Positions 1-7,900 of a DNA stretch of 7,900 bases are shown here, piece by piece. Location of the stretch: positions 1-7,900 of the IMG/VR virus record IMGVR_UViG_2778261030_000021. One strand, given 5' to 3'. Numbering within the stretch: the stretch's first letter is position 1; each line of letters begins with the position of its first letter. Under the pieces are notes generated by a model. It searched no databases and was not told the DNA's origin. It was given only the letters and a program-made list of their open reading frames with translations. A program made the position numbers and the translations under genes. This DNA comes from a virus. Lineage: Duplodnaviria > Heunggongvirae > Uroviricota > Caudoviricetes.

Positions 1-744
1 GGAAGGTTTAATTACCTGCAACGTACCAAAATCACGCTCTTTGTCGTTCTTCTCTGCACGGGGTACGGATAAAAAGCCTTTTGCTTTTTTGTCACCGTCG
101 CCCACAACCAGATCGCTTTCTTCGGTTTCCGTGAAGGTGTCGCCAATCTCGCCCGTCAGCCATGAAAGGATGTCCACATCGGAAAAATCCACGATTTCCT
201 GCGTGGTGCGCGGGTACGCATAGACCGGATACAGCTTAATGCTCACCTCGTTAATCTGCGGGGTGCTGGTCTGTTCGCGTGCCTTACCCTCTTCACCGTG
301 GTTAACGGTCGCACCGCCAGCGGAAACAAGCTGCTTAAACTCGTTGCTGCTGATTTTCTTCACGGTACAGATGCGGCGCATGGTGGATTCATCCGTCAGC
401 ATTCGCATGATTTCGGTGTTCAGTTCGGGGATAACGGTATAACCACCATCAGCGGGAACGCCTGTACTCAATGCGCGGGTTTCACCTGTCAGAATGTAGT
501 GACGTAGTTCGGCGGGGTCAGTGGTCTGGCTGTTTTTGCCTGGTTTACTGCGCTCTTCGTCAGCAACGGCCTCAAGGCGGGAGATGTCTTTATCGAGTGA
601 TTCAGCTTTAGCGCGTAATTCGTCAAATTTTGCGCCCTCAGCATCGTTAAGGCTGCGGTTTTCTTTTTCCGCGTTCTCCAGCATGTCGCGCATCTGATTT
701 TTAATGGCGGTTTTCTGCTGGCGTAATTCGATTATTCTCGGCAT
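1..744 (-). CDS. Major capsid protein, HK97-fold family (N-terminal ~248 codons; 3' end beyond window start)
   Basis: Minus-strand frame is open from ATG 744..742 to position 1 with no stop, so it is absent from the ORF track. Own translation: MPRIIELRQQKTAIKNQMRDMLENAEKENRSLNDAEGAKFDELRAKAESLDKDISRLEAVADEER... then ...GGYTVIPELNTEIMRMLTDESTMRRICTV...INEVSIKLYPVYAYPRTTQEIVDFSDVDILSWLTGEIGDTFTETEESDLVVGDGDKKAKGFLS. An N-terminal coiled coil followed by these motifs matches my recollection of HK97-type capsid proteins. AGGA lies 8 nt upstream of the ATG. Confidence 0.65.
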   Translation of the reverse strand, partial: MPRIIELRQQKTAIKNQMRDMLENAEKENRSLNDAEGAKFDELRAKAESLDKDISRLEAVADEERSKPGKNSQTTDPAELRHYILTGETRALSTGVPADGGYTVIPELNTEIMRMLTDESTMRRICTVKKISSNEFKQLVSAGGATVNHGEEGKAREQTSTPQINEVSIKLYPVYAYPRTTQEIVDFSDVDILSWLTGEIGDTFTETEESDLVVGDGDKKAKGFLSVPRAEKNDKERDFGTLQVIKPS

Positions 745-781
745 AAAAAAAGTCCTGGGGTTAAGTAAGGAACTCCAGGAC
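745..781 (-). promoter_or_regulatory. Hairpin (stem 752-758 / 775-781, GTCCTGG/CCAGGAC) followed on the minus strand by U7 (751..745) and then the capsid ATG; the capsid Shine-Dalgarno AGGA lies inside the 3' arm
   Basis: Directly read inverted repeat plus T-run. The geometry is that of an intrinsic terminator, but it ends 1 nt before the start codon and sequesters the RBS. Confidence 0.45.
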
Positions 782-956
782 GCGGCAAAAACTCAACCGT
801 TTTTCATAAGGAAATCAGCAATCGCACCGATCGTTTTCCCGCCTGGTAATGAATATTGGCGAGAACATTAACAGGCGGAAAAGTGGCCCCAGCGTCCTGG
901 CACCACGGGCGAGAATAATCATGATTCAGTTCGGGTAAAATATGCCGATCCGCTCA

Positions 957-986
957 GTGAACAACGTGGAACAACCACGAACAAAT
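957..986. repeat. Three 10-bp-phased direct repeats: gtGAACAACg / tgGAACAACc / acGAACAAAt
   Basis: Directly read; copies begin at 959, 969 and 979. Lies in the ORF-poor region upstream (minus-strand sense) of the capsid gene. Confidence 0.5.
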
Positions 987-1003
987 AATTTACAAAAAAT
1001 GAC

Positions 1004-1025
1004 AAAAAGCCGGATTTCTCCGGCT
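1004..1025 (-). terminator. Intrinsic terminator after the 74-aa gene (7-bp stem AGCCGGA/TCCGGCT, 4-nt loop, U-rich tail on minus strand)
   Basis: Hairpin 1008-1025 and A-run 1004-1008 on the plus strand give hairpin-then-U on the minus strand, 11 nt downstream of the stop at 1036-1038. Confidence 0.6.
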
Positions 1026-1035
1026 GTATGGGTGC

Positions 1036-1260
1036 TCAGTCCCTGATCCCTTTCAGAAATTCTATCAATGCATCTATCTGTTCAGGATTTACCGCCAGCA
1101 TTTCACCGGATAGAGCACATCTCACAAAACCATGCTGATCCTTTTCAATCAGTGCGCCCGTCTCCAGGAATGCGCGGTAATCATTGATGCTCATCGTCTC
1201 CATGTTGTCAGCATGGTATTTATCACGCTGTTTTAATATCTCATCAAATTTCATCGGCAT
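1036..1260 (-). CDS. Hypothetical acidic protein, 74 aa
   Basis: ATG at 1260 with AGAGGA about 9 nt upstream; own terminator downstream. No family recognised. Confidence 0.5.
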   Translation of the reverse strand: MPMKFDEILKQRDKYHADNMETMSINDYRAFLETGALIEKDQHGFVRCALSGEMLAVNPEQIDALIEFLKGIRD

Positions 1261-1356
1261 TGTTTTTTTCCTCTGTTGTGTCTGTTTGTTTCAGATAGTA
1301 ACTATGCCTGACCGTGACGAAAACCCGGTAATGCGCCATACCGTTTCAACTGGTGC

Positions 1357-1380
1357 AAAAAAAGCCGGATTTCTCCGGCT
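1357..1380 (-). terminator. Intrinsic terminator after the PerC-like gene; near-identical copy of the 1004-1025 terminator
   Basis: Same AGCCGGATTTCTCCGGCT hairpin (1363-1380) followed on the minus strand by U7 (1357-1363). A 24-bp core is shared between 1004-1027 and 1360-1383. Confidence 0.65.
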
Positions 1381-1386
1381 GTTTGA

Positions 1387-1659
1387 TTAGCTGTCCTGGT
1401 AATTGCGCCATATTTCATCACCAGCACCATCTATACCCATTTCGGCATAAGTGCGATCGACTGCCTTTTTCAGGTCTCCGAAATTATCCGGCGGCTCCGG
1501 TGCCCTCTGTGCCTTCCTTGAACATTCCAGCCGTCGCATCGTGATGTGATGCCGTTCCTTGTCTGTCTCCACCAGCTGCATGACTTCACCCCATCGCGCC
1601 GCCGCCCTCCGGTAAAAGCCTTTCGCCTCCAGTTCCTCCGCTATGCGGTCATGTACCAT
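1387..1659 (-). CDS. PerC-family-like small transcriptional activator, 90 aa (start moved to ATG 1659; the track ORF begins further upstream at a non-ATG codon)
   Basis: MVHDRIAEELEAKGFYRRAAARWGEVM... resembles the AEKLExKGLWRRAA signature I recall for PerC/Pch proteins. Strong SD GAGGGGGGG immediately upstream of ATG 1659. Confidence 0.5.
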   Translation of the reverse strand: MVHDRIAEELEAKGFYRRAAARWGEVMQLVETDKERHHITMRRLECSRKAQRAPEPPDNFGDLKKAVDRTYAEMGIDGAGDEIWRNYQDS

Positions 1660-1669
1660 CGTCCCCCCC

Positions 1670-2080
1670 TCAGAACGAAATATCATCACCGTAAGGGTCA
1701 TCGCCTCCCGCTGGTGGCTGATTACCCTGTGTGCCTGTGGTTTTGCGTCTGTTCCCGCCTGGACGTGCCGCGCGGGCACTGATTACGCTGTCTGCGATAA
1801 CCTGCCAGCCCTGCCGCGTTTCTCCGTTCTGTCCGGCCCACTGGCTTACCTGCATCGTGCCGGATACGCTGGCAACATCGCCTTTTTGATGTTTAGCCAG
1901 GAAGTCGGCCTGTTTGCCAAATGCGATGACCGATAACCATAACGTCGCCTGTCCGTCCTGTGCCTGGCTGCATGGCAACGATACCGCCATACGCGCCAGC
2001 GTCATCGGTGTGCCCTTGCTGGTCTGTTTTACCTGCGGGTCGTCCACCAGCCGCCCGTAAGCGGCTATCTGTGCCGTCAT
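1670..2080 (-). CDS. ssb: Single-stranded DNA-binding protein (SSB-like OB fold), 136 aa
   Basis: Pattern GRLVDDPQV...TLWLSVIAFGKQADFLAKHQKGDVASVSGTMQVSQWAGQNGETRQGWQVIADSV aligns by eye with E. coli SSB (G.L..DPE...W..V.FGK.AE...KG..V..G....W.D.G.R), and the acidic tail DDPYGDDISF resembles the SSB C-terminal DDDIPF tip. ATG 2080 with GAGAGGTGG SD; start overlaps the upstream stop (ATGA). Confidence 0.75.
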   Translation of the reverse strand: MTAQIAAYGRLVDDPQVKQTSKGTPMTLARMAVSLPCSQAQDGQATLWLSVIAFGKQADFLAKHQKGDVASVSGTMQVSQWAGQNGETRQGWQVIADSVISARAARPGGNRRKTTGTQGNQPPAGGDDPYGDDISF

Positions 2081-2322
2081 AATTCCACCTCTCCGGTTTT
2101 AACGTTGATGGTTGTTACCTGTTCCGCTTCGGCAATCTCCCGTTCTGTCAGCGTGGCAAAGTTTGCCGCTGCTGTGGTCATGAATGCGCTTATCAGTTCG
2201 GGATGTGCTTTCGCGTATCCTTCCCCGGCGTTGCGGTCGATGATTTTTATCGCCACCCTCAGCCAGTGTTCTGTCAAATCAAGGGCGTGAGATTGTGGTT
2301 TTTTGGCGTGCTTCGTTGTCAC
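2077..2322 (-). CDS. Hypothetical protein, 81 aa (GTG start)
   Basis: Codon at 2322..2320 is GTG with GAGGT about 9 nt upstream; stop overlaps the ssb start. No family recognised. Confidence 0.45.
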   Translation of the reverse strand: MTTKHAKKPQSHALDLTEHWLRVAIKIIDRNAGEGYAKAHPELISAFMTTAAANFATLTEREIAEAEQVTTINVKTGEVEL

Positions 2323-2367
2323 AGGCTTTACCTCACAGCAATAAAATAAAATTTTTGCATTTCAACC

Positions 2368-2597
2368 CTTCACCTGTTCACCTTTTGCAATTTTCCCTTT
2401 TTATTCATGATGTTAAGGGGTGAACAGTTTCACAAAAACTATTCACCAACTGTTCACCACTGTTCACCCTTAAAGCTCAATAAAGAATCAAAAAGGTGAA
2501 CAGTGAATAGTTTGGTGAACAGTTCATAAATAACTGTTCACCCTATAATATACTGATATAAAAGACATTTATTGCAGGCTGAACAGTGGTGAACAGT
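2368..2597. repeat. Iteron array: at least 9 full copies of the octamer TGTTCACC / GGTGAACA in both orientations plus partial copies; putative replication origin (P4 ori/crr type)
   Basis: Directly read: TGTTCACC at 2375, 2451, 2461 and 2536; GGTGAACA at 2419, 2495, 2514 and 2589; partials at 2368, 2441, 2503 and 2579. The array starts 13 bp beyond the primase stop. As I recall, TGTTCACC is the type I iteron bound by P4 alpha protein. Confidence 0.7.
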
Positions 2598-2609
2598 TAT
2601 TCCATAAGT

Positions 2610-4427
2610 TTAATTTTTTCCATCGTCATTTGTGACCGATGCACATGATGGCATCCAGTCTTCTGAATCCTCTGTCAGGGTCACATTTGAACGCAAACCG
2701 TGCTTCGTTTTCCGTTTCATATACTCCCTGCCATATTCCGCCATTGCCCCCGGCATATCTTTACCGAAGCGCGTCAGTGTTACAGGTTTACCGAATCCGT
2801 GTGCCCTCATATATGCCAGATAGGCGTGATAAAGATACCTGCGCGGACTGAACGGAATAATTTCGGCATTACCCACTAACAGACCATCACACATTACCGA
2901 CGACATGAGATAGCCGCAGAAGTCCACCAGCGAATCGCCCTCGCGTTTTATCACCAGAGCTTCTTCTGATTTCTGCTGCTCATACAGCAGGCGTTTAGCT
3001 TCGTCCTGGTCAGAAAAACGAGTAAGCAGGTGGCGAATCACAACCGCCAGCTCTCCTTCTATTTTTTCTGCCAGCATGGGGTCGCGTTCGTTTTCCGGTA
3101 CAACCTCCGAAAAATTGAATATCACCCGACGACGTGAAATCCCCCCGCTGCGGTCACTGAATGACATGGCGTTATTGTTCACCGCCAACACTACCGCCTG
3201 AATGCGTGTTGAGTAGGGGGCTTTATGCTTCGGGTCGATTGCCACCTTGTCACCGCCTGTAATGGCCTTAATTCCTGCGCCATCACCAGCGTAACGGGTC
3301 ATATCCGGCATGATAATCAGCGAAAAGCCAACCACTAACGCGCGTTCCCTGGCATCTTCCAGCGCCTTCATGCTTGCCGATACCGTGTTGGCCTTACCCG
3401 CCAGCATGGTGCAAATCTCCGCCATCACGCTTTTACCACTTCCCCCTGGACCTGTTACCTCAATGAATAACTGCCAGTCGTACCGGTTCGCCAGCACCAT
3501 GAATAATGCAGCCAGTACGCGATCCGCCTTGCGGTCATTCTCAGCCACCGAACGGCGTAACCACTTCCAGAAATTCGGCGCATGTGTTGCCAGCGTTTCC
3601 CCCTCTGCTGGTGGGCTGAAAGGTAATTCACTGGCAATTAACAACCAGTCGTTTTTGTTATGCTCCCGAAAATTACCTGTTCTGGTATCAAATACCCCGT
3701 TACTGAATCCAATCAGGTTACGGGCTGTATTCCCCATTACAGGCAAACTTAACTTCATGGTATCGACCGCCGATTTAATGGCGTTCTGCGAATAGCTGAT
3801 CTCCGCATCAATGAAAATCTGTGCCATAGCTCGCTGTAATTCTTTATCCTGTACTGGCTCCCATACAACGCCGTTGTAATGGTGAACAGTGTCAGAGTCA
3901 GCATGAATCGCCAGTTCACCGCCATAATGTGCCAGGAGAACTTCGCCGCGTTGACTTGCTCCCATCTGGTTAAGCGCCAGTGATGAAGCGTTATCGTCTT
4001 TTACCCGCTCTTTTTTCTTTACAGGCAGTTCAACTACCTTTTTCTTTTCCGCCTGCTCTGCCCGTTCACGTTCCAGATATTCGCGCCAGTTCTCCCGTTT
4101 CTGGCTGTGCATTCCTTCAGGGTAATAATCAGCATCCCTGACACCTGCCGCTGCCAGTTTCTGCCCGATGGTATTAACAAGCCCCGGACGCAATAACCCC
4201 GCCTGGTAGAGACGCACCCGATAGCGTCCGTCCGGTACGATTTGCAGCTTATCCAGTTCGGCAAGTTGTTGTTCTCCAAGCCAGACAGGAGGCACGCTGT
4301 CGCCAGCCAGTCGCCCGTCCTGTTCCTGCCACTGCTTCGCATGTGCCCACGCATCATTACCCGCAAAAATGATGACTTCCGTCATTTTGTCACGCGGCTG
4401 GTGTTTTAAATTTGGCGCTTTTTTCAT
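2610..4427 (-). CDS. Replication primase-helicase of the P4-alpha / D5 (SF3 helicase) family, 605 aa (start moved from track position 4442 to ATG 4427)
   Basis: Walker A TGPGGSGKS within a D5-like region. The track ORF begins at a GTG (4442); the first ATG (4427..4425, MKKAPNLKHQ...) has GGAGAGAG upstream and overlaps the stop of the preceding gene (ATGA). Confidence 0.85.
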   Translation of the reverse strand: MKKAPNLKHQPRDKMTEVIIFAGNDAWAHAKQWQEQDGRLAGDSVPPVWLGEQQLAELDKLQIVPDGRYRVRLYQAGLLRPGLVNTIGQKLAAAGVRDADYYPEGMHSQKRENWREYLERERAEQAEKKKVVELPVKKKERVKDDNASSLALNQMGASQRGEVLLAHYGGELAIHADSDTVHHYNGVVWEPVQDKELQRAMAQIFIDAEISYSQNAIKSAVDTMKLSLPVMGNTARNLIGFSNGVFDTRTGNFREHNKNDWLLIASELPFSPPAEGETLATHAPNFWKWLRRSVAENDRKADRVLAALFMVLANRYDWQLFIEVTGPGGSGKSVMAEICTMLAGKANTVSASMKALEDARERALVVGFSLIIMPDMTRYAGDGAGIKAITGGDKVAIDPKHKAPYSTRIQAVVLAVNNNAMSFSDRSGGISRRRVIFNFSEVVPENERDPMLAEKIEGELAVVIRHLLTRFSDQDEAKRLLYEQQKSEEALVIKREGDSLVDFCGYLMSSVMCDGLLVGNAEIIPFSPRRYLYHAYLAYMRAHGFGKPVTLTRFGKDMPGAMAEYGREYMKRKTKHGLRSNVTLTEDSEDWMPSCASVTNDDGKN

Positions 4428-4723
4428 TTCTGCTCTCTCCACGCGGCAATCATGTTTTTCAGTTCCTGTAGTTTTTTATCAACATCCATACATGACACAT
4501 GGTTATTTCTGGAAAGCGGGATTTCCCGCCTGAATCTGCTAATAAAGATCTCCACGTTCAGCGAACTATGAAATGAATAGCCATCACGAATAAAATACAC
4601 ACGGTCAAACATCAGTTCTTTTACCGTTACTCTGTTACCGTTCTTATCCAGATAAATAGCGCCGGGGATAATTTTGGGGTGTGCATAACCGCTGGCAGTC
4701 AAGCCAGATAAATACGTTCTCAT
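4424..4723 (-). CDS. Hypothetical protein, 99 aa, translationally coupled to the primase
   Basis: ATG 4723; stop TGA overlaps the primase ATG. No family recognised. Confidence 0.55.
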   Translation of the reverse strand: MRTYLSGLTASGYAHPKIIPGAIYLDKNGNRVTVKELMFDRVYFIRDGYSFHSSLNVEIFISRFRREIPLSRNNHVSCMDVDKKLQELKNMIAAWREQK

Positions 4724-4729
4724 GATTAT

Positions 4730-5050
4730 TTATCTCAGATTTGAATCAGTATTCGCTTTCTCTATGGCATTTAATGCATCTGTGGCATTTTCAATGGTGC
4801 ACCGTAACGAAATATCAAACTGCCCAAGCATTGCCAGTAACAAGCCAATATTACCCATGTCAATGCGCATAGCCTTTTCGTCATATTCCTCATTTTCTGA
4901 CGCATGCCACATCAGGCTACCAATTGACGAAACAGCCATTGATATATTGTCAGTAGCCCCATCCGCAGCGGAATAAACCTTTTTAGCAATATCATGCTCA
5001 CAGTTAAAATGCGGATTAATCAGGTACTGGTAATTGGTCATGTCAGGCAT
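4730..5050 (-). CDS. Hypothetical acidic protein, 106 aa
   Basis: ATG 5050..5048 overlaps the end of the upstream small gene. Strongly acidic composition (about 17 D/E against 7 K/R). Confidence 0.55.
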   Translation of the reverse strand: MPDMTNYQYLINPHFNCEHDIAKKVYSAADGATDNISMAVSSIGSLMWHASENEEYDEKAMRIDMGNIGLLLAMLGQFDISLRCTIENATDALNAIEKANTDSNLR

Positions 5051-5246
5051 GGAACACCCCCTGACGAATACGGGCGGCGAATACCATCACGCAGCCATCA
5101 GGAGATTGCTGACGCGCGTCCTGTTCGCTGGTGGCCTCAATGGTAATCACGCGCGGTTGTGCCGTGCTCAGGGCGATAAAACGCCAGATGTATTTATTCA
5201 GGTTGTGCGAGTCCCGCCCTTGCGGGTGTGTGGTATGATTTAACAT
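5043..5246 (-). CDS. Small first gene of the leftward operon, 67 aa (possibly Icd/Kil-like; function uncertain)
   Basis: ATG 5246..5244 with GAGGT 5-6 nt upstream; MLNHTTHPQGRDSHNLNKYIWRFIALSTAQPRVITIEATSEQDARQQSPDGCVMVFAARIRQGVFHA. It is the C-terminal 67 codons of the 341-aa track ORF, which I reject as a whole. The Icd-like guess rests on position only. Confidence 0.5.
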   Translation of the reverse strand: MLNHTTHPQGRDSHNLNKYIWRFIALSTAQPRVITIEATSEQDARQQSPDGCVMVFAARIRQGVFHA

Positions 5247-5342
5247 AGCTACCTCGATATTCTTGCTATCGTTGGTGGTTAGACGCCCGGTTAGTGTTAG
5301 CGCACTGCCGGGTTTCGTCGTTTCTGCACCTTGCATCAACAA

Positions 5343-5396
5343 GGTGTTTAACACCAATTTAAGCCCTGGTGTTAAACACGTCAAGTGTTGAACACT
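5343..5396. promoter_or_regulatory. Three 13-bp palindromic operator-like sites (G/A)GTGTT-N-AACAC(C/T) in the divergent promoter region
   Basis: Directly read: 5343-5355 GGTGTTTAACACC (perfect), 5368-5380 GGTGTTAAACACG (one mismatch), 5384-5396 AGTGTTGAACACT (perfect). The third overlaps a plus-strand -35-like TTGAAC (5388-5393), with a weak -10 CATACT at 5411-5416. Confidence 0.55.
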
Positions 5397-5445
5397 TATT
5401 TTTTTTCCTGCATACTGCATTTGTTTTTTGTAAGGGGTACACAAC

Positions 5446-5625
5446 ATGGCGACAAAAGCAGTAAACGCAAAATCACAAACAGTTGCGGCAAGGGTTCCGC
5501 ATGAAGTTATGAACAATGTTGAGGCGGTAAAAATGCCTGGTGAAAGTACAGGGCAGTTTGTAACAGCAGCATTAAAGCGAGAAGTTGAATACCGCCAGCG
5601 TCGCAAGGCCAAAGAGCAGGAATAA
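5446..5625 (+). CDS. Small DNA-binding protein, probable ribbon-helix-helix fold, 59 aa
   Basis: Below the track's size cut-off. ATG 5446 with AAGGGG 8 nt upstream; MATKAVNAKSQTVAARVPHEVMNNVEAVKMPGESTGQFVTAALKREVEYRQRRKAKEQE. Beta-strand (TVAARVP), helix, Gly turn, helix pattern typical of Arc/CopG-type proteins. Confidence 0.5.
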   Translation: MATKAVNAKSQTVAARVPHEVMNNVEAVKMPGESTGQFVTAALKREVEYRQRRKAKEQE

Positions 5626-5682
5626 CCATCACCAGCGCCGTGGTGTAAGGTATTACGGCGCATTGCTATGCAGGACAACACA

Positions 5683-5856
5683 ATGACCGATAAAGAATTG
5701 ACCAAAACATTATCACCGGCACGGAAAAGACGGCGCAGAAAGATAGAGCATGAATCAGAAAGATTCGCGCCATGTGCTTTTGCCCTTGAGCAATTCCTTA
5801 AAGAGTACAGGGAAAAGCGCTCATTGCAGGTATGGCAACGAACTGAACCAGACTGA
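5683..5856 (+). CDS. Hypothetical Arg-rich small protein, 57 aa
   Basis: ATG 5683 with AGGA 7 nt upstream (the track's longer ORF starts at 5668). Contains ARKRRRRK; rare AGA/AGG/CGG codons. Confidence 0.4.
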   Translation: MTDKELTKTLSPARKRRRRKIEHESERFAPCAFALEQFLKEYREKRSLQVWQRTEPD

Positions 5857-5950
5857 TAGCATTGCCCACCAGCCTGATAGCGACTATCATTGCCGTTCTT
5901 ATGTTTGGGATCACACACACAAACGGCGCAGCGGGTTATCTGTTCAGAAA

Positions 5951-5979
5951 GGCGGCTCCATTTCGGGGCCGCTTTTTTT
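5951..5979 (+). terminator. Intrinsic terminator of the plus-strand two-gene unit
   Basis: Stem 5952-5959 GCGGCTCC pairs with 5965-5972 GGGGCCGC (one G-U), 5-nt loop, then T7 at 5973-5979. Confidence 0.7.
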
Positions 5980-6120
5980 ATTCCTGAAAAACCCCAATTT
6001 TGTTGTTTTTCAGTTTCACCAGGGCGAACGAATCCCCGCCCACGTTCGGGCGCATATTCAATCTTCATGGTTATATCTCTGTATTAGTGGATGTGTGGCG
6101 GCTGCGTGCCGCCAGCGTGA

Positions 6121-6309
6121 TTAATGAACTGCCTTGCAGCTATCCTTCCAGGCCAGAACCTCGGATAAAGACCAGCCAACGGAACGACCGCCAAGTTTAC
6201 GACGTGATGGGAATTGTCCGGCCTTTTCCAGGCGGTAGCGGCATGAGCGGCTAAGGCCTGTTAGCTTTTCGCATTCTTTTTCACGTATAAACCGATCAGT
6301 GCTTAACAC
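6121..6309 (-). CDS. alpA: AlpA-family phage transcriptional regulator / excisionase-like HTH protein, 62 aa (GTG start)
   Basis: EKLTGLSRSCRYRLEKAGQFPSRRKLGGRSVGWSLSEVLAW matches the AlpA signature I recall (TG.SRST.Y......FP....LG.R.V.W...E...W). GTG at 6309..6307 with AAGGGG 5 nt upstream; no in-frame ATG is available. Confidence 0.8.
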   Translation of the reverse strand: MLSTDRFIREKECEKLTGLSRSCRYRLEKAGQFPSRRKLGGRSVGWSLSEVLAWKDSCKAVH

Positions 6310-6590
6310 TATTGCCCCTTTCGTTTCTTAAAGAGTTATTTCGTGTTCTATTGCGTTGGGATGTGTCTGATTGTGTCAGGATGATTCAGAGTTGGCAAAT
6401 GTTGAGGACGTATGGTTTACAGAAAGAGGAATAATCAGGATAAAATCATTTAAATTCATGTTAATACAAAGGCATAAAATATTGTTTCATGCCTTTTTTC
6501 TCGCTATTTAAAGAGTGATTCGCTAGTGTATAAAAAACCAGTAACACATTAAAAATCAGCCACTTATAAATCTGTACACTTTTTCGCCTC

Positions 6591-6640
6591 TTGTTCGTAG
6601 TTGTTCCGCATTGTTGCTCATTGTTGCACGTTGTATCTGT
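6591..6640. repeat. Five 10-bp-phased direct repeats beginning TTGTT (TTGTTCGTAG / TTGTTCCGCA / TTGTTGCTCA / TTGTTGCACG / TTGTATCTGT)
   Basis: Directly read, exact 10-bp register, between the integrase stop and the alpA upstream region. Confidence 0.5.
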
Positions 6641-6649
6641 TCGCATATC

Positions 6650-6665
6650 CAGTATGCGCATACTG
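6650..6665. repeat. Perfect 16-bp palindrome CAGTATGCGCATACTG
   Basis: Directly read. Lies 18 bp beyond the integrase stop and is flanked by A/T runs. Confidence 0.55.
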
Positions 6666-6682
6666 AAAAAATACGAAAAAAA

Positions 6683-7900
6683 TTATTTTCTTCTGGCTAC
6701 TGGTAGCGTGGTTACGTTTTCATGTGTTCCCGCCAGTATCCCTAACCGCTCCATCCACATATCCAGCGCATTGCGTTTAGCATCCAGATAACGGGAATGA
6801 TTATAAACTCGCTGCATTCCTGGCATCTGGTGGCCTGTAAGCTGCTCCACGACATGCGGATCAACGCCTAAATCGTTCAGCATGGTTGTAAAGGTGCGCC
6901 GGATGTCATGCAGTGACCAGTGAGGGTGATTAAGCCTCCTGTGCGCTAATCTTCCATACTGCGATACGCTGGCCTCCTGTTTCACTGCCCCCAGCAATAA
7001 GCCCGTGTGCCTGTTCTGCTCCACCAGCTGCGTGACGAACGGCAGGATCGCTTCCGGTATGGGCCGGAATATTGCGACCTTCGTTTTGCTGTGCTCCTTC
7101 GGAACGGTCCATAGCATTTCCGTAAAATCCCACTCCCCGATCTCTGATAACCTCAGTTCTACCGTTCTGGCTCCGAAGACAATCAGGAGGCGGATTAACG
7201 CGACGTAGTAAGGGGAAAATATTTTTTTATCCAGCGCCTGCAATAACTCGCCCAGTTCTTTGGTGCTTAAGACACGTTCGCTTATATCCGGTTTTTTCCC
7301 AACGTCCGCCACGTTCAGATCGTCCAGAACGTTGCTGATTGCATAGCGCCGCCTACGGCAGAACTTAAGCGCCTGTTTGCACGCCTGTAGCACGAATCCG
7401 GCAGTAACAGGCGTTCGCTTTGCCACCTGGTCAAAACAGGCCAGCCAGTGCCGTAGCTCGCATTTATCCAGCGGCATAGCACCAATCTGCTGTATTACGT
7501 GATTATTAAGTCGCCTTTTCAGGGCGATATAATCCACGCGGTTTTCCTTTACGTAAGACTCAAGCCAGTAGGTGAGCGCATCGCCAACCGTTACGGGCTT
7601 TAACGCTTCCTGTACGGTGTAATTCATCTCATGACGTGGATTTTTCCCCTCAGCCAGCCATGCGCGGCACTGGGCGGCTTTTTCCCTGGCTGCTTTCAGA
7701 CTCAGATCAGGATAATTTCCCAGCTTAATACGTTCCGGTCGTGTCTCTCTTCCCGTTCCTGCCCTGTAAGTGAAATACCAGGTTAATTTCCCTGATGTTA
7801 AATATTTCACGCTCAGATTTCCGCCATCGCTATAAAACGTGTTTTTCTCCGCTGGCTTACCATGAAGTTTCCTTAGCAATGTGTCGCTCAGTTTGTTCAT
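6683..7900 (-). CDS. int: Tyrosine recombinase / phage integrase (P4-type), 405 aa
   Basis: 405-aa ORF starting with ATG exactly at the window edge (the true start could lie upstream). Integrase-like C-terminal region including HDIRRTFTT and the tail ...MQRVYNHSRYLDAKRNALDMW with candidate catalytic Tyr. Confidence 0.88.
   Translation of the reverse strand: MNKLSDTLLRKLHGKPAEKNTFYSDGGNLSVKYLTSGKLTWYFTYRAGTGRETRPERIKLGNYPDLSLKAAREKAAQCRAWLAEGKNPRHEMNYTVQEALKPVTVGDALTYWLESYVKENRVDYIALKRRLNNHVIQQIGAMPLDKCELRHWLACFDQVAKRTPVTAGFVLQACKQALKFCRRRRYAISNVLDDLNVADVGKKPDISERVLSTKELGELLQALDKKIFSPYYVALIRLLIVFGARTVELRLSEIGEWDFTEMLWTVPKEHSKTKVAIFRPIPEAILPFVTQLVEQNRHTGLLLGAVKQEASVSQYGRLAHRRLNHPHWSLHDIRRTFTTMLNDLGVDPHVVEQLTGHQMPGMQRVYNHSRYLDAKRNALDMWMERLGILAGTHENVTTLPVARRK

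Follow-up and report, generated by a model that had tools for sequence, protein, structure and literature searches.

The 7,900-nucleotide stretch analysed here (the window; positions 1 to 7,900 of IMG/VR record IMGVR_UViG_2778261030_000021) covers the left two-thirds of a satellite residing in tqsA, a capsid-forming phage-inducible chromosomal island (cf-PICI) whose type is that of EcCIEDL933/EcCICFT073. A copy in E. coli 10153 (locus L017), 99.3–99.6% identical to the window, provides the complete 14.8-kb element, which sits in tqsA between two core repeats (TGCTGTTAT) and has the gene order int, alpA, primase, SSB, PerC, HK97-type capsid, protease, portal, connectors, HNH, TerS and TerL, which matches that of EcCIEDL933, the prototype capsid-forming PICI (bioRxiv 10.1101/2022.09.08.507074). 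Between int and alpA lies a spacer of 373 bp (6310–6682) with a GC content of 30–38%, compared to 47–57% in the flanking genes. The spacer is present in 878 of 5,426 complete E. coli genomes and annotated in none of them. The features that concern us first are these:

6683–7900, minus strand: P4-type tyrosine integrase with an arm-binding N-domain (Pfam PF13356, Arm-DNA-bind_3, and PF00589, Phage_integrase; RefSeq annotation in L017).
6591–6640, plus strand: five TTGT boxes at 10-bp phase, TTGTTCGTAG TTGTTCCGCA TTGTTGCTCA TTGTTGCACG TTGTATCTGT, a candidate AlpA operator array.
6121–6309, minus strand (6121–6320 with its Shine-Dalgarno sequence): alpA, 62 aa, GTG start at 6309–6307, AAGGGG Shine-Dalgarno at 6320–6315; Pfam PF05930.
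955–1005, minus strand: second array, TTGTCATTTTT TTGTAAATTAT TTGTTCGTGG TTGTTCCACG TTGTTCACTG, 211–261 bp upstream of the major capsid ATG.
From 744 (ATG), minus strand: major capsid gene, 5' part.

A first-pass annotation of the window had described an AT-rich spacer of about 370 bp holding phased repeats, a palindrome, a hairpin and a GTG start for alpA, and each of these features is indeed present where it was placed. The five TTGTT repeats it reported keep their phase exactly, with TTGT starting at 6591, 6601, 6611, 6621 and 6631 in 10-bp steps, a period also reported by Tandem Repeats Finder; four units read TTGTT, while the fifth reads TTGTA. On the coding strand of int and alpA the array reads AACAA. 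A five-unit phased pattern of this kind appeared in none of 200 dinucleotide shuffles of the window. We assessed conservation in an alignment of 12 spacers of about 70–99% identity, in which 17 of the 20 TTGT columns were invariant, compared to 5 of 30 columns between the boxes (Fisher p = 2e-6). Judged from this alignment, invariant boxes separated by variable gaps are typical of short recognition sites for a protein that share one face of the helix, and the array is under selection rather than a product of chance. Pooling 46 distinct units yielded the consensus TTGTTyC followed by three variable bases. The EDL933 spacer shares 86.6% identity with that of the window; for the EcCICFT073 lineage the figure is about 72%, and EcCICFT073 itself carries six boxes at the same spacer position.

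Beyond these close relatives, scanning IMG/VR for four phased TTGT units returned 120 mostly unrelated tandem repeats, only three of which were close PICI relatives, and a genome-contig search for distant int-alpA loci returned three loci, two of them irrelevant. A protein homology search gave 19 AlpA matches; the two contexts examined, one a fis-site PICI and the other with two extra genes between int and alpA, contained no int-alpA spacer and no clear arrays. Moreover, a de novo search for phased repeats in P4, EcCIMP1 and the cspD-site and hpt-site elements found no TTGT-type array upstream of alpA, indicating that the alpA array is specific to the int-alpA module of EcCICFT073 and EcCIEDL933.

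In all, the element has four such arrays, of which the spacer holds one. A three-unit search identified another ahead of the capsid gene, at 961–984 on the minus strand, and this array extends to 955–1005 with two units at 11-bp spacing. It directly follows a terminator and carries TTGT on the coding strand, opposite in orientation to the spacer array. EcCIEDL933 has the same array, as does a yifB-site cf-PICI whose downstream leader differs, and short blastn matches in other elements cover just the piece of 50–60 bp that holds it; from these sequence comparisons, it travels as a 50–60-bp unit into elements whose flanking leader differs. An hpt-site cf-PICI with a different Int and AlpA and a different doubled motif has no arm array, and its capsid-leader array is partly degenerate. 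As a separate observation, a weak ACAA-phased stretch of two to three units, AACAAACAGACACAACAGAGG, at 1266–1299 on the minus strand (13489–13522 in L017) overlaps the ribosome-binding region of a 74-aa open reading frame (ORF) at 1036–1260; seen only with one mismatch allowed, it may be chance or a minor site.

The remaining two arrays lie in the attachment (att) arms. The integrase ORF seems to begin at the window edge, 7900, and the annotated start codon of the L017 copy is 12 nt beyond it (MSRA-MNKLSD). The window therefore includes neither the att core nor the proximal att arm, nor the promoter of int. With the core TGCTGTTAT located beyond int, the spacer is a regulatory region rather than an att core, as the first-pass annotation had proposed. 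Both att arms of L017 carry TTGT arrays, compared to 0.16 expected by chance per 23 kb, and arm arrays of three to four boxes occur in both arms of L017 and of four further elements (L001, L018, L147 and L149). All four places, namely both arms, the spacer and the region upstream of the capsid operon, are occupied in L017, L147 and EcCIEDL933, while EcCICFT073 and L001 carry arrays in both arms and in the spacer. No TTGT array was found in about 60 kb of host flanks. We also observed that elements integrated at tqsA, roxA-phoQ and yifB (L017, L018, L147 and L149) have near-identical arms, arrays included, together with different cores and target sites. The integrases across those sites look closely related, at about 88% protein identity in two IMG/VR relatives, and DNA identity across int is 86–92% for EcCICFT073 and EcCIEDL933; target specificity thus seems, from sequence, to change with little change in the arms.

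The arms hold a second class of site. In each arm, TGACTACACC occurs twice with a 12-bp period, the pairs being co-oriented and lying about 145 and 90 bp from the core (5681–5702 and 20286–20307 in L017), and the motif is found in neither the spacer nor the capsid leader. Comparison with the attP arm sites of P4, which the first-pass annotation had recommended, was informative here: the annotated "attP arm sequence repeats" of P4, ATGCCCCCAATT, are likewise doubled and lie about 134 and 75 bp from the core, and the TGACTACACC arrangement matches them in period, doubling and distance from the core. EcCIMP1 has a doubled arm motif as well, and so do the HE-PICIs, where one suggestion of the authors is that four half-sites serve an Int tetramer (PMC10111431). 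By analogy, the four arm domains of an integrase tetramer probably bind at the TGACTACACC pairs. Since Int already has these doubled sites, the TTGT arrays are left for an accessory factor. P4-type arm sites are motifs of 10–12 bp doubled at a 12-bp period, with one orientation in both arms and a distance of about 75–145 bp to the core; the TTGT array itself does not fit this pattern, as its period is 10 bp and it also occurs away from att, while the doubled TGACTACACC fits instead. The att arms would accordingly resolve into two site classes, doubled 12-bp Int sites and phased accessory sites.

The geometry of the arrays points to the type of accessory factor. Recombination directionality factors (RDFs) bind tandem direct repeats spaced one helical turn apart, at att sites and at promoters (PMC7498355, PMC11963761): Apl of phage 186 has seven operators at pR-pL and five at attP (PMC7498355), and RdfS binds attP and its own promoter (PMC11963761). 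The spacer array shows the spacing expected of excisionase-type operators, at least three tandem direct repeats at 10–11 bp, and the same sites recur in the att arms of the same element. By this comparison, the array geometry is a hallmark of RDF binding.

The element encodes a fitting protein. AlpA, for which RefSeq calls the same 189-bp gene, matches Pfam PF05930 with E = 5e-18 and is 42% identical to P4 Vis. Its structural model (pLDDT 86.7) has excisionases as best fold matches (8C3T, 8DGL, 1Z4H and 4J2N), resembling the GIsul2 excisionase (TM 0.83–0.90), RdfS, TorI and Pukovnik Xis; according to the model, AlpA has the excisionase-type winged-helix fold and is a small protein of the winged-helix RDF family. 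We found no paper on DNA sites linked to PDB entry 8C3T. No DNA-binding proteins other than Int and AlpA are annotated in all of the array-bearing elements examined; annotation of YlcI is absent from EDL933, and that of PerC from L147.

Published genetics bear on the same protein. Transcription of alpA is helper-dependent (PMC6092414; PMC11773190), and AlpA alone, without a helper, brings about its own activation and excision (PMC6092414). We mapped the primers of the published AlpA-activated PalpA fragment of EcCICFT073 and found that it spans the entire spacer, including the six boxes; the fragment therefore holds the array plus all the rest of the spacer, and the array lies about 195–245 bp from the predicted -35. 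Overexpression of AlpA alone also drives capsid production by EcCIEDL933 (bioRxiv 10.1101/2025.02.11.637232), an outcome consistent with the array that precedes the capsid operon. The searchable literature defines no AlpA sites in PICIs, no cis elements of this spacer and no helper route to alpA.

From the observed arrays, their positions and conservation, the fold of AlpA and the content of the reporter fragment, we infer AlpA as the binder and an effect of its binding on transcription. We put the probability that the phased TTGTTyC boxes are AlpA operator arrays at roughly 60%, and the array in the spacer is most likely a docking site of AlpA, the master switch of the satellite, since the same boxes recur at both att arms and upstream of the capsid gene. 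The first-pass annotation had suggested binding by AlpA or Int; the boxes do behave like protein-binding sites and appear to fit AlpA, whereas Int is less likely, TGACTACACC not being present in the spacer.

How the spacer array could act depends on what else the spacer contains:

6650–6665, no strand assigned: perfect 16-bp palindrome CAGTATGCGCATACTG, just after the int stop, core of an imperfect inverted repeat at about 6640–6677.
6468–6500, no strand assigned: hairpin with a 12-bp stem, arms 6468–6479 and 6485–6496, 11 of 12 positions complementary, plus-strand T-run to 6499.
6370–6398, minus strand: predicted alpA promoter, -35 TTGCCA (6398–6393), 17-bp spacer, TG-extended -10 CACAAT (6375–6370), 9/12 match.
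6508–6520, plus strand: direct repeat TTAAAGAGTnATT, copy 2, in conserved block 6507–6542, 180 bp from copy 1.
6416–6424, plus strand: invariant block TTTACAGAA, about -53 to -61 from the predicted alpA start.
6328–6340, plus strand: direct repeat TTAAAGAGTnATT, copy 1, in the predicted alpA leader just upstream of the Shine-Dalgarno sequence, invariant in the alignment.

An alpA promoter within the spacer had been anticipated at first pass, and a conserved, sigma-70-like promoter is predicted there. Its -35 is invariant (TGGCAAA), and in the EDL933 group a 10-bp deletion leaves TTGCCA-17-AACAAT in place, so that conserved hexamers at a spacing within 16–18 bp lie upstream of alpA. From this conservation, TTGCCA-17-CACAAT is likely the alpA promoter, with a predicted start near 6363 and a leader of about 54 nt. 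In the leader, AAGGGG lies 5 nt before the GTG start, and, as noted at first pass, a second gene shares this Shine-Dalgarno sequence: AAGGGG also lies 8 nt before the ATG (5446) of the YlcI/YnfO gene on the plus strand. Beside the arrays themselves (minus strand 6500–6600, the plus strand past the array, and the capsid leader), a search that included inspection by hand identified only weak or unconserved hexamers and no strong promoter.

The hairpin had been read as a plus-strand structure with a T-run. The structure is present, with an invariant T6 (U6) tail on the plus strand and a UUUGUAUU tail on the minus strand, but it folds at least as well on the minus strand (dG -12.9 kcal/mol, z -3.6) as on the plus strand (dG -9.3 kcal/mol, z -2.6). 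Judged by per-sequence folds, it is kept in all eight sequence variants, with a series from A-U through G.U to G-C at one pair, and so combines a stem-loop and U-tract with pair-preserving changes, as expected of an intrinsic terminator. The stem has only three G-C pairs and is absent from the list produced by a consensus scan. On the sequence evidence, it is probably a conserved bidirectional terminator between int and alpA, which would insulate alpA from int read-through and int from antisense transcripts. In most related elements, the YlcI/YnfO gene converges on alpA. We saw no plus-strand terminator in 5900–6467, the part of the interval between YlcI and the hairpin that was scanned, so that the YlcI transcript could run antisense through alpA and its promoter and end at the hairpin; EcCIEDL933 has no annotated YlcI gene and retains the hairpin.

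Conservation in related elements, on which the first-pass annotation had staked its reading of both the repeats and the palindrome, holds across the 12 spacers for the repeats and fails for the palindrome. In the EcCICFT073 lineage a sixth TTGT box and an 11-bp deletion take the place of the palindrome, and in EDL933 it has one mismatch; it is therefore lineage-specific. It occurs once in the element, and on the minus-strand RNA it forms part of a 15-bp imperfect stem (about 6640–6677; dG -12.6, z -4.0). By a rough estimate, about 0.006 perfect palindromes of 16 bp would arise by chance in 373 bp. The direct repeat TTAAAGAGTnATT has only two copies in the 23-kb locus L017, where 0.12 would be expected, one on each side of the predicted promoter and terminator; the pair may be operators for a looping repressor or for the helper's inducer. 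The invariant block TTTACAGAA is a possible activator or UP-like site, judging from its position and conservation.

With this arrangement, AlpA monomers would bind the boxes head-to-tail and cooperatively, one per helical turn, and bend the DNA, by analogy with 186 Apl, P2 Cox, lambda Xis and P4 Vis. In the arms, where the arrays lie beside the doubled integrase sites, excision by Int would receive help from AlpA, which could also block access to the int promoter. The known positive autoregulation would depend on the spacer array ahead of alpA. Located 195–245 bp upstream of the predicted -35 and behind the terminator, it is unlikely to allow direct contact with RNA polymerase of the class I or class II type, and would instead probably act through bending or looping, or by countering the silencing of this AT-rich region. 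The array ahead of the capsid gene, in turn, would allow AlpA to switch on the late operon. AlpA-type antitermination of the Pseudomonas kind was considered and rejected. Pseudomonas AlpA loads at a single GGGACG-type element (ABE), placed between -35 and -10, in combination with a pause site and a terminator further downstream, and its DNA-reading helix-turn-helix includes residues 128–142 (PMC9371919); the protein there is Q-like, whereas the AlpA studied here is a plain winged-helix protein of 62 aa and the array does not lie in a promoter spacer.

Gram-negative PICIs and cf-PICIs are widespread satellites with AlpA as their master switch, and the TTGTTyC box at four places provides a concrete candidate AlpA regulon for point mutation and footprinting in EcCICFT073 and EcCIEDL933. 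If the assignment is correct, one small protein could coordinate excision, auto-induction and late gene expression.

Several observations weigh against AlpA as the binder. Int and alpA always form one travelling module, so that covariation cannot separate the two as candidate binders. The cspD-site relatives, in which Int is 76% and AlpA 62% identical, keep the arm arrays and have a spacer without an array, a pattern that fits sites linked to Int as well as it fits AlpA sites. The spacer array is distant from the predicted promoter, lies upstream of the terminator and points the opposite way to the other three arrays. Reporter assays in EcCICFT073 gave no effect of AlpA on Pint (PMC6092414), even though an array adjoins int. 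Finally, the att arms, being outside the window, were taken from copies 99.3–99.6% identical to it.

The cspD-site pattern bears on the reading in which the TTGT boxes are arm-type sites of Int, the arrays in the spacer and the capsid leader then being extra Int sites for autoregulation or decoys. Int carries an Arm-DNA-bind_3 domain, arrays occupy both att arms, and the cspD-site elements retain the arm arrays together with a conserved Int N-domain while their AlpA is only 62% identical and their spacer lacks an array. However, P4-type integrases use doubled 12-bp repeats, as in P4, EcCIMP1 and the HE-PICIs, and the element already has the equivalent in TGACTACACC. Furthermore, a 10-bp period, a core of 4–7 bp and five to six contiguous units are RDF-like, while an integrase tetramer has only four arm domains, and Int sites upstream of a capsid operon would serve no obvious purpose. 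We consider this assignment unlikely.

Another protein that could use the arrays comes from the helper phage, namely a Xis- or Cox-like winged-helix protein that docks there and induces alpA. The helper dependence of alpA transcription (PMC6092414; PMC11773190) agrees with such an inducer, and P4 offers a precedent: TTAAAGNCA occurs three times with a 10-bp period, 146–175 bp upstream of vis, and P2 Cox, whose activation of P4 is cited in PMC7498355, activates the PLL promoter via three phased Cox boxes upstream of vis. Nonetheless, AlpA alone, with no helper present, achieves autoactivation, excision and capsid production, so the element encodes a protein that must act at these places, and the helpers lambda, phi80 and HK106 would need a common specificity. 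The sites of lambda Xis are not known to be 10-bp TTGT arrays. We therefore regard helper-protein docking on the arrays as improbable, and give an equally slim chance to the broader proposal that the helper-phage inducer acts either at the TTGT arrays or at other conserved blocks of the spacer (the TTAAAGAGTnATT pair, TTTACAGAA), by analogy with P2 Cox on P4. If true, a single short DNA code would link the sensing of the helper to excision, to auto-amplification of AlpA and to expression of the capsid genes.

A host factor, either an OmpR/PhoB-type response regulator or a nucleoid protein drawn to the AT-rich spacer, would be compatible with the geometry, as OmpR/PhoB-type proteins use tandem direct repeats of 10–11 bp. 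H-NS represses alpA of Shewanella CP4So (PMC5148205). The arrays, on the other hand, occur only inside the element, with none in about 60 kb of host flanks, and beside Int arm sites, and a sequence-specific binder travelling with the element would better explain why TTGT is so strictly conserved; binding by a host factor is thus very unlikely. The TTGT boxes are also not known to fit any response-regulator consensus. That the repeats act as RNA in the int 3' untranslated region or encode a small protein (minus-strand ORF 6461–6661) is largely refuted by sequence comparison: a 66-aa ORF does span the array in the window, and the array, placed after the int stop and before the terminator, is thus transcribed with int, but the ORF is cut to 33 aa or absent in related spacers, where an 11-bp indel breaks the frame, no spacer ORF is conserved across lineages, an Rfam scan of the window gave no match in the spacer and only sub-threshold matches elsewhere, and the same boxes occur in either orientation and in the untranscribed att arms, which points to recognition of DNA.

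The rest of the window contains genes and repeats outside the int-alpA module:

Within the window, minus strand: DUF4222, D5-type primase and SSB genes.
5446–5625, plus strand: YlcI/YnfO gene.

A 341-aa ORF at 5043–6068 on the minus strand, which overlaps the YlcI gene on the opposite strand, was rejected as a gene, as RefSeq gives fragments or pseudogenes (Icd-like, ash family) in related copies. Between 5313 and 5594 the window differs in sequence from the closest full copy. Upstream of YlcI/YnfO, an Rfam match to the SymR antitoxin RNA at 5247–5319 on the plus strand scored 28 bits against a gathering score of 61 (E = 0.036) and is probably due to chance. Dense direct and inverted GGTGAACAG repeats occupy 2397–2611, just 3' of the primase gene, and the cluster is very likely the satellite replication origin because the same 9-mer is annotated as the 'ori type 1 repeat' of phage P4. 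Sub-threshold Rfam microRNA matches at 2424–2537 are artefacts of these inverted repeats. TTGT arrays as replication-origin iterons were rejected, since the P4-type iteron GGTGAACAG clusters at 2397–2611 and the TTGT arrays lie elsewhere. A terminator-like hairpin, AAAAAGCCGGATTTCTCCGGCTGT, occurs twice around the 74-aa ORF 1036–1260, at 1004–1030 and 1359–1385, the copies being 96% identical and 355 bp apart.

The closest relatives of the proposed AlpA system in working appear to be 186 Apl, P2 Cox and P4 Vis, in each of which a small winged-helix protein uses phased operators at att sites and promoters. For 186 Apl and the Cox proteins of P2 and HP1, as here, direct repeats lie one turn apart, three to seven per array, at attP and a promoter region, and the cognate protein, a part proposed here for AlpA, is a small winged-helix factor that is both excisionase and transcription regulator (PMC7498355). 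Their arrays, however, sit between face-to-face promoters and mediate repression, whereas the arrays here lie upstream of operons that AlpA reportedly activates, one of them more than 190 bp from the predicted promoter, and the TTGTTyC box differs. The protein here also belongs to the AlpA/Vis family rather than the Cox/Apl family.

P4 is similar in its P4-type integrase and in its doubled 12-bp arm repeats, which flank the core in the same orientation and at comparable distances. It has a phased array of three 10-bp units upstream of vis, but this is the target of the helper's Cox and not of Vis, and TTGT arrays, unlike in the element here, are absent. Vis reportedly has binding sites at its own promoter as well as between int and the core. 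It represses PLL, whereas PICI AlpA activates PalpA. In P4, the RDF sites overlap the int promoter (PMC7498355). PICIs have int and alpA adjacent and co-oriented, while the P4 gene order differs. Nearer still in sequence, EcCICFT073 and EcCIEDL933 share the int-alpA module, spacer and arrays with the element here, from which they differ in integration site (roxA-phoQ versus tqsA) and in part of the early region.

The filaments formed by RdfS of ICEMlSymR7A, BldC and lambda Xis show how a protein with the fold of AlpA may occupy such arrays, as these proteins assemble head-to-tail on DNA with one protomer per turn. RdfS, in contrast, has no clear consensus motif, whereas the box here is sharply conserved, and the N- and C-terminal oligomerisation helices of RdfS, BldC and lambda Xis differ from those of AlpA. 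The element described here departs from 186 Apl, P2 Cox and P4 Vis in its box, in activation in place of repression, in having arrays in both arms and in an extra array at the late operon.

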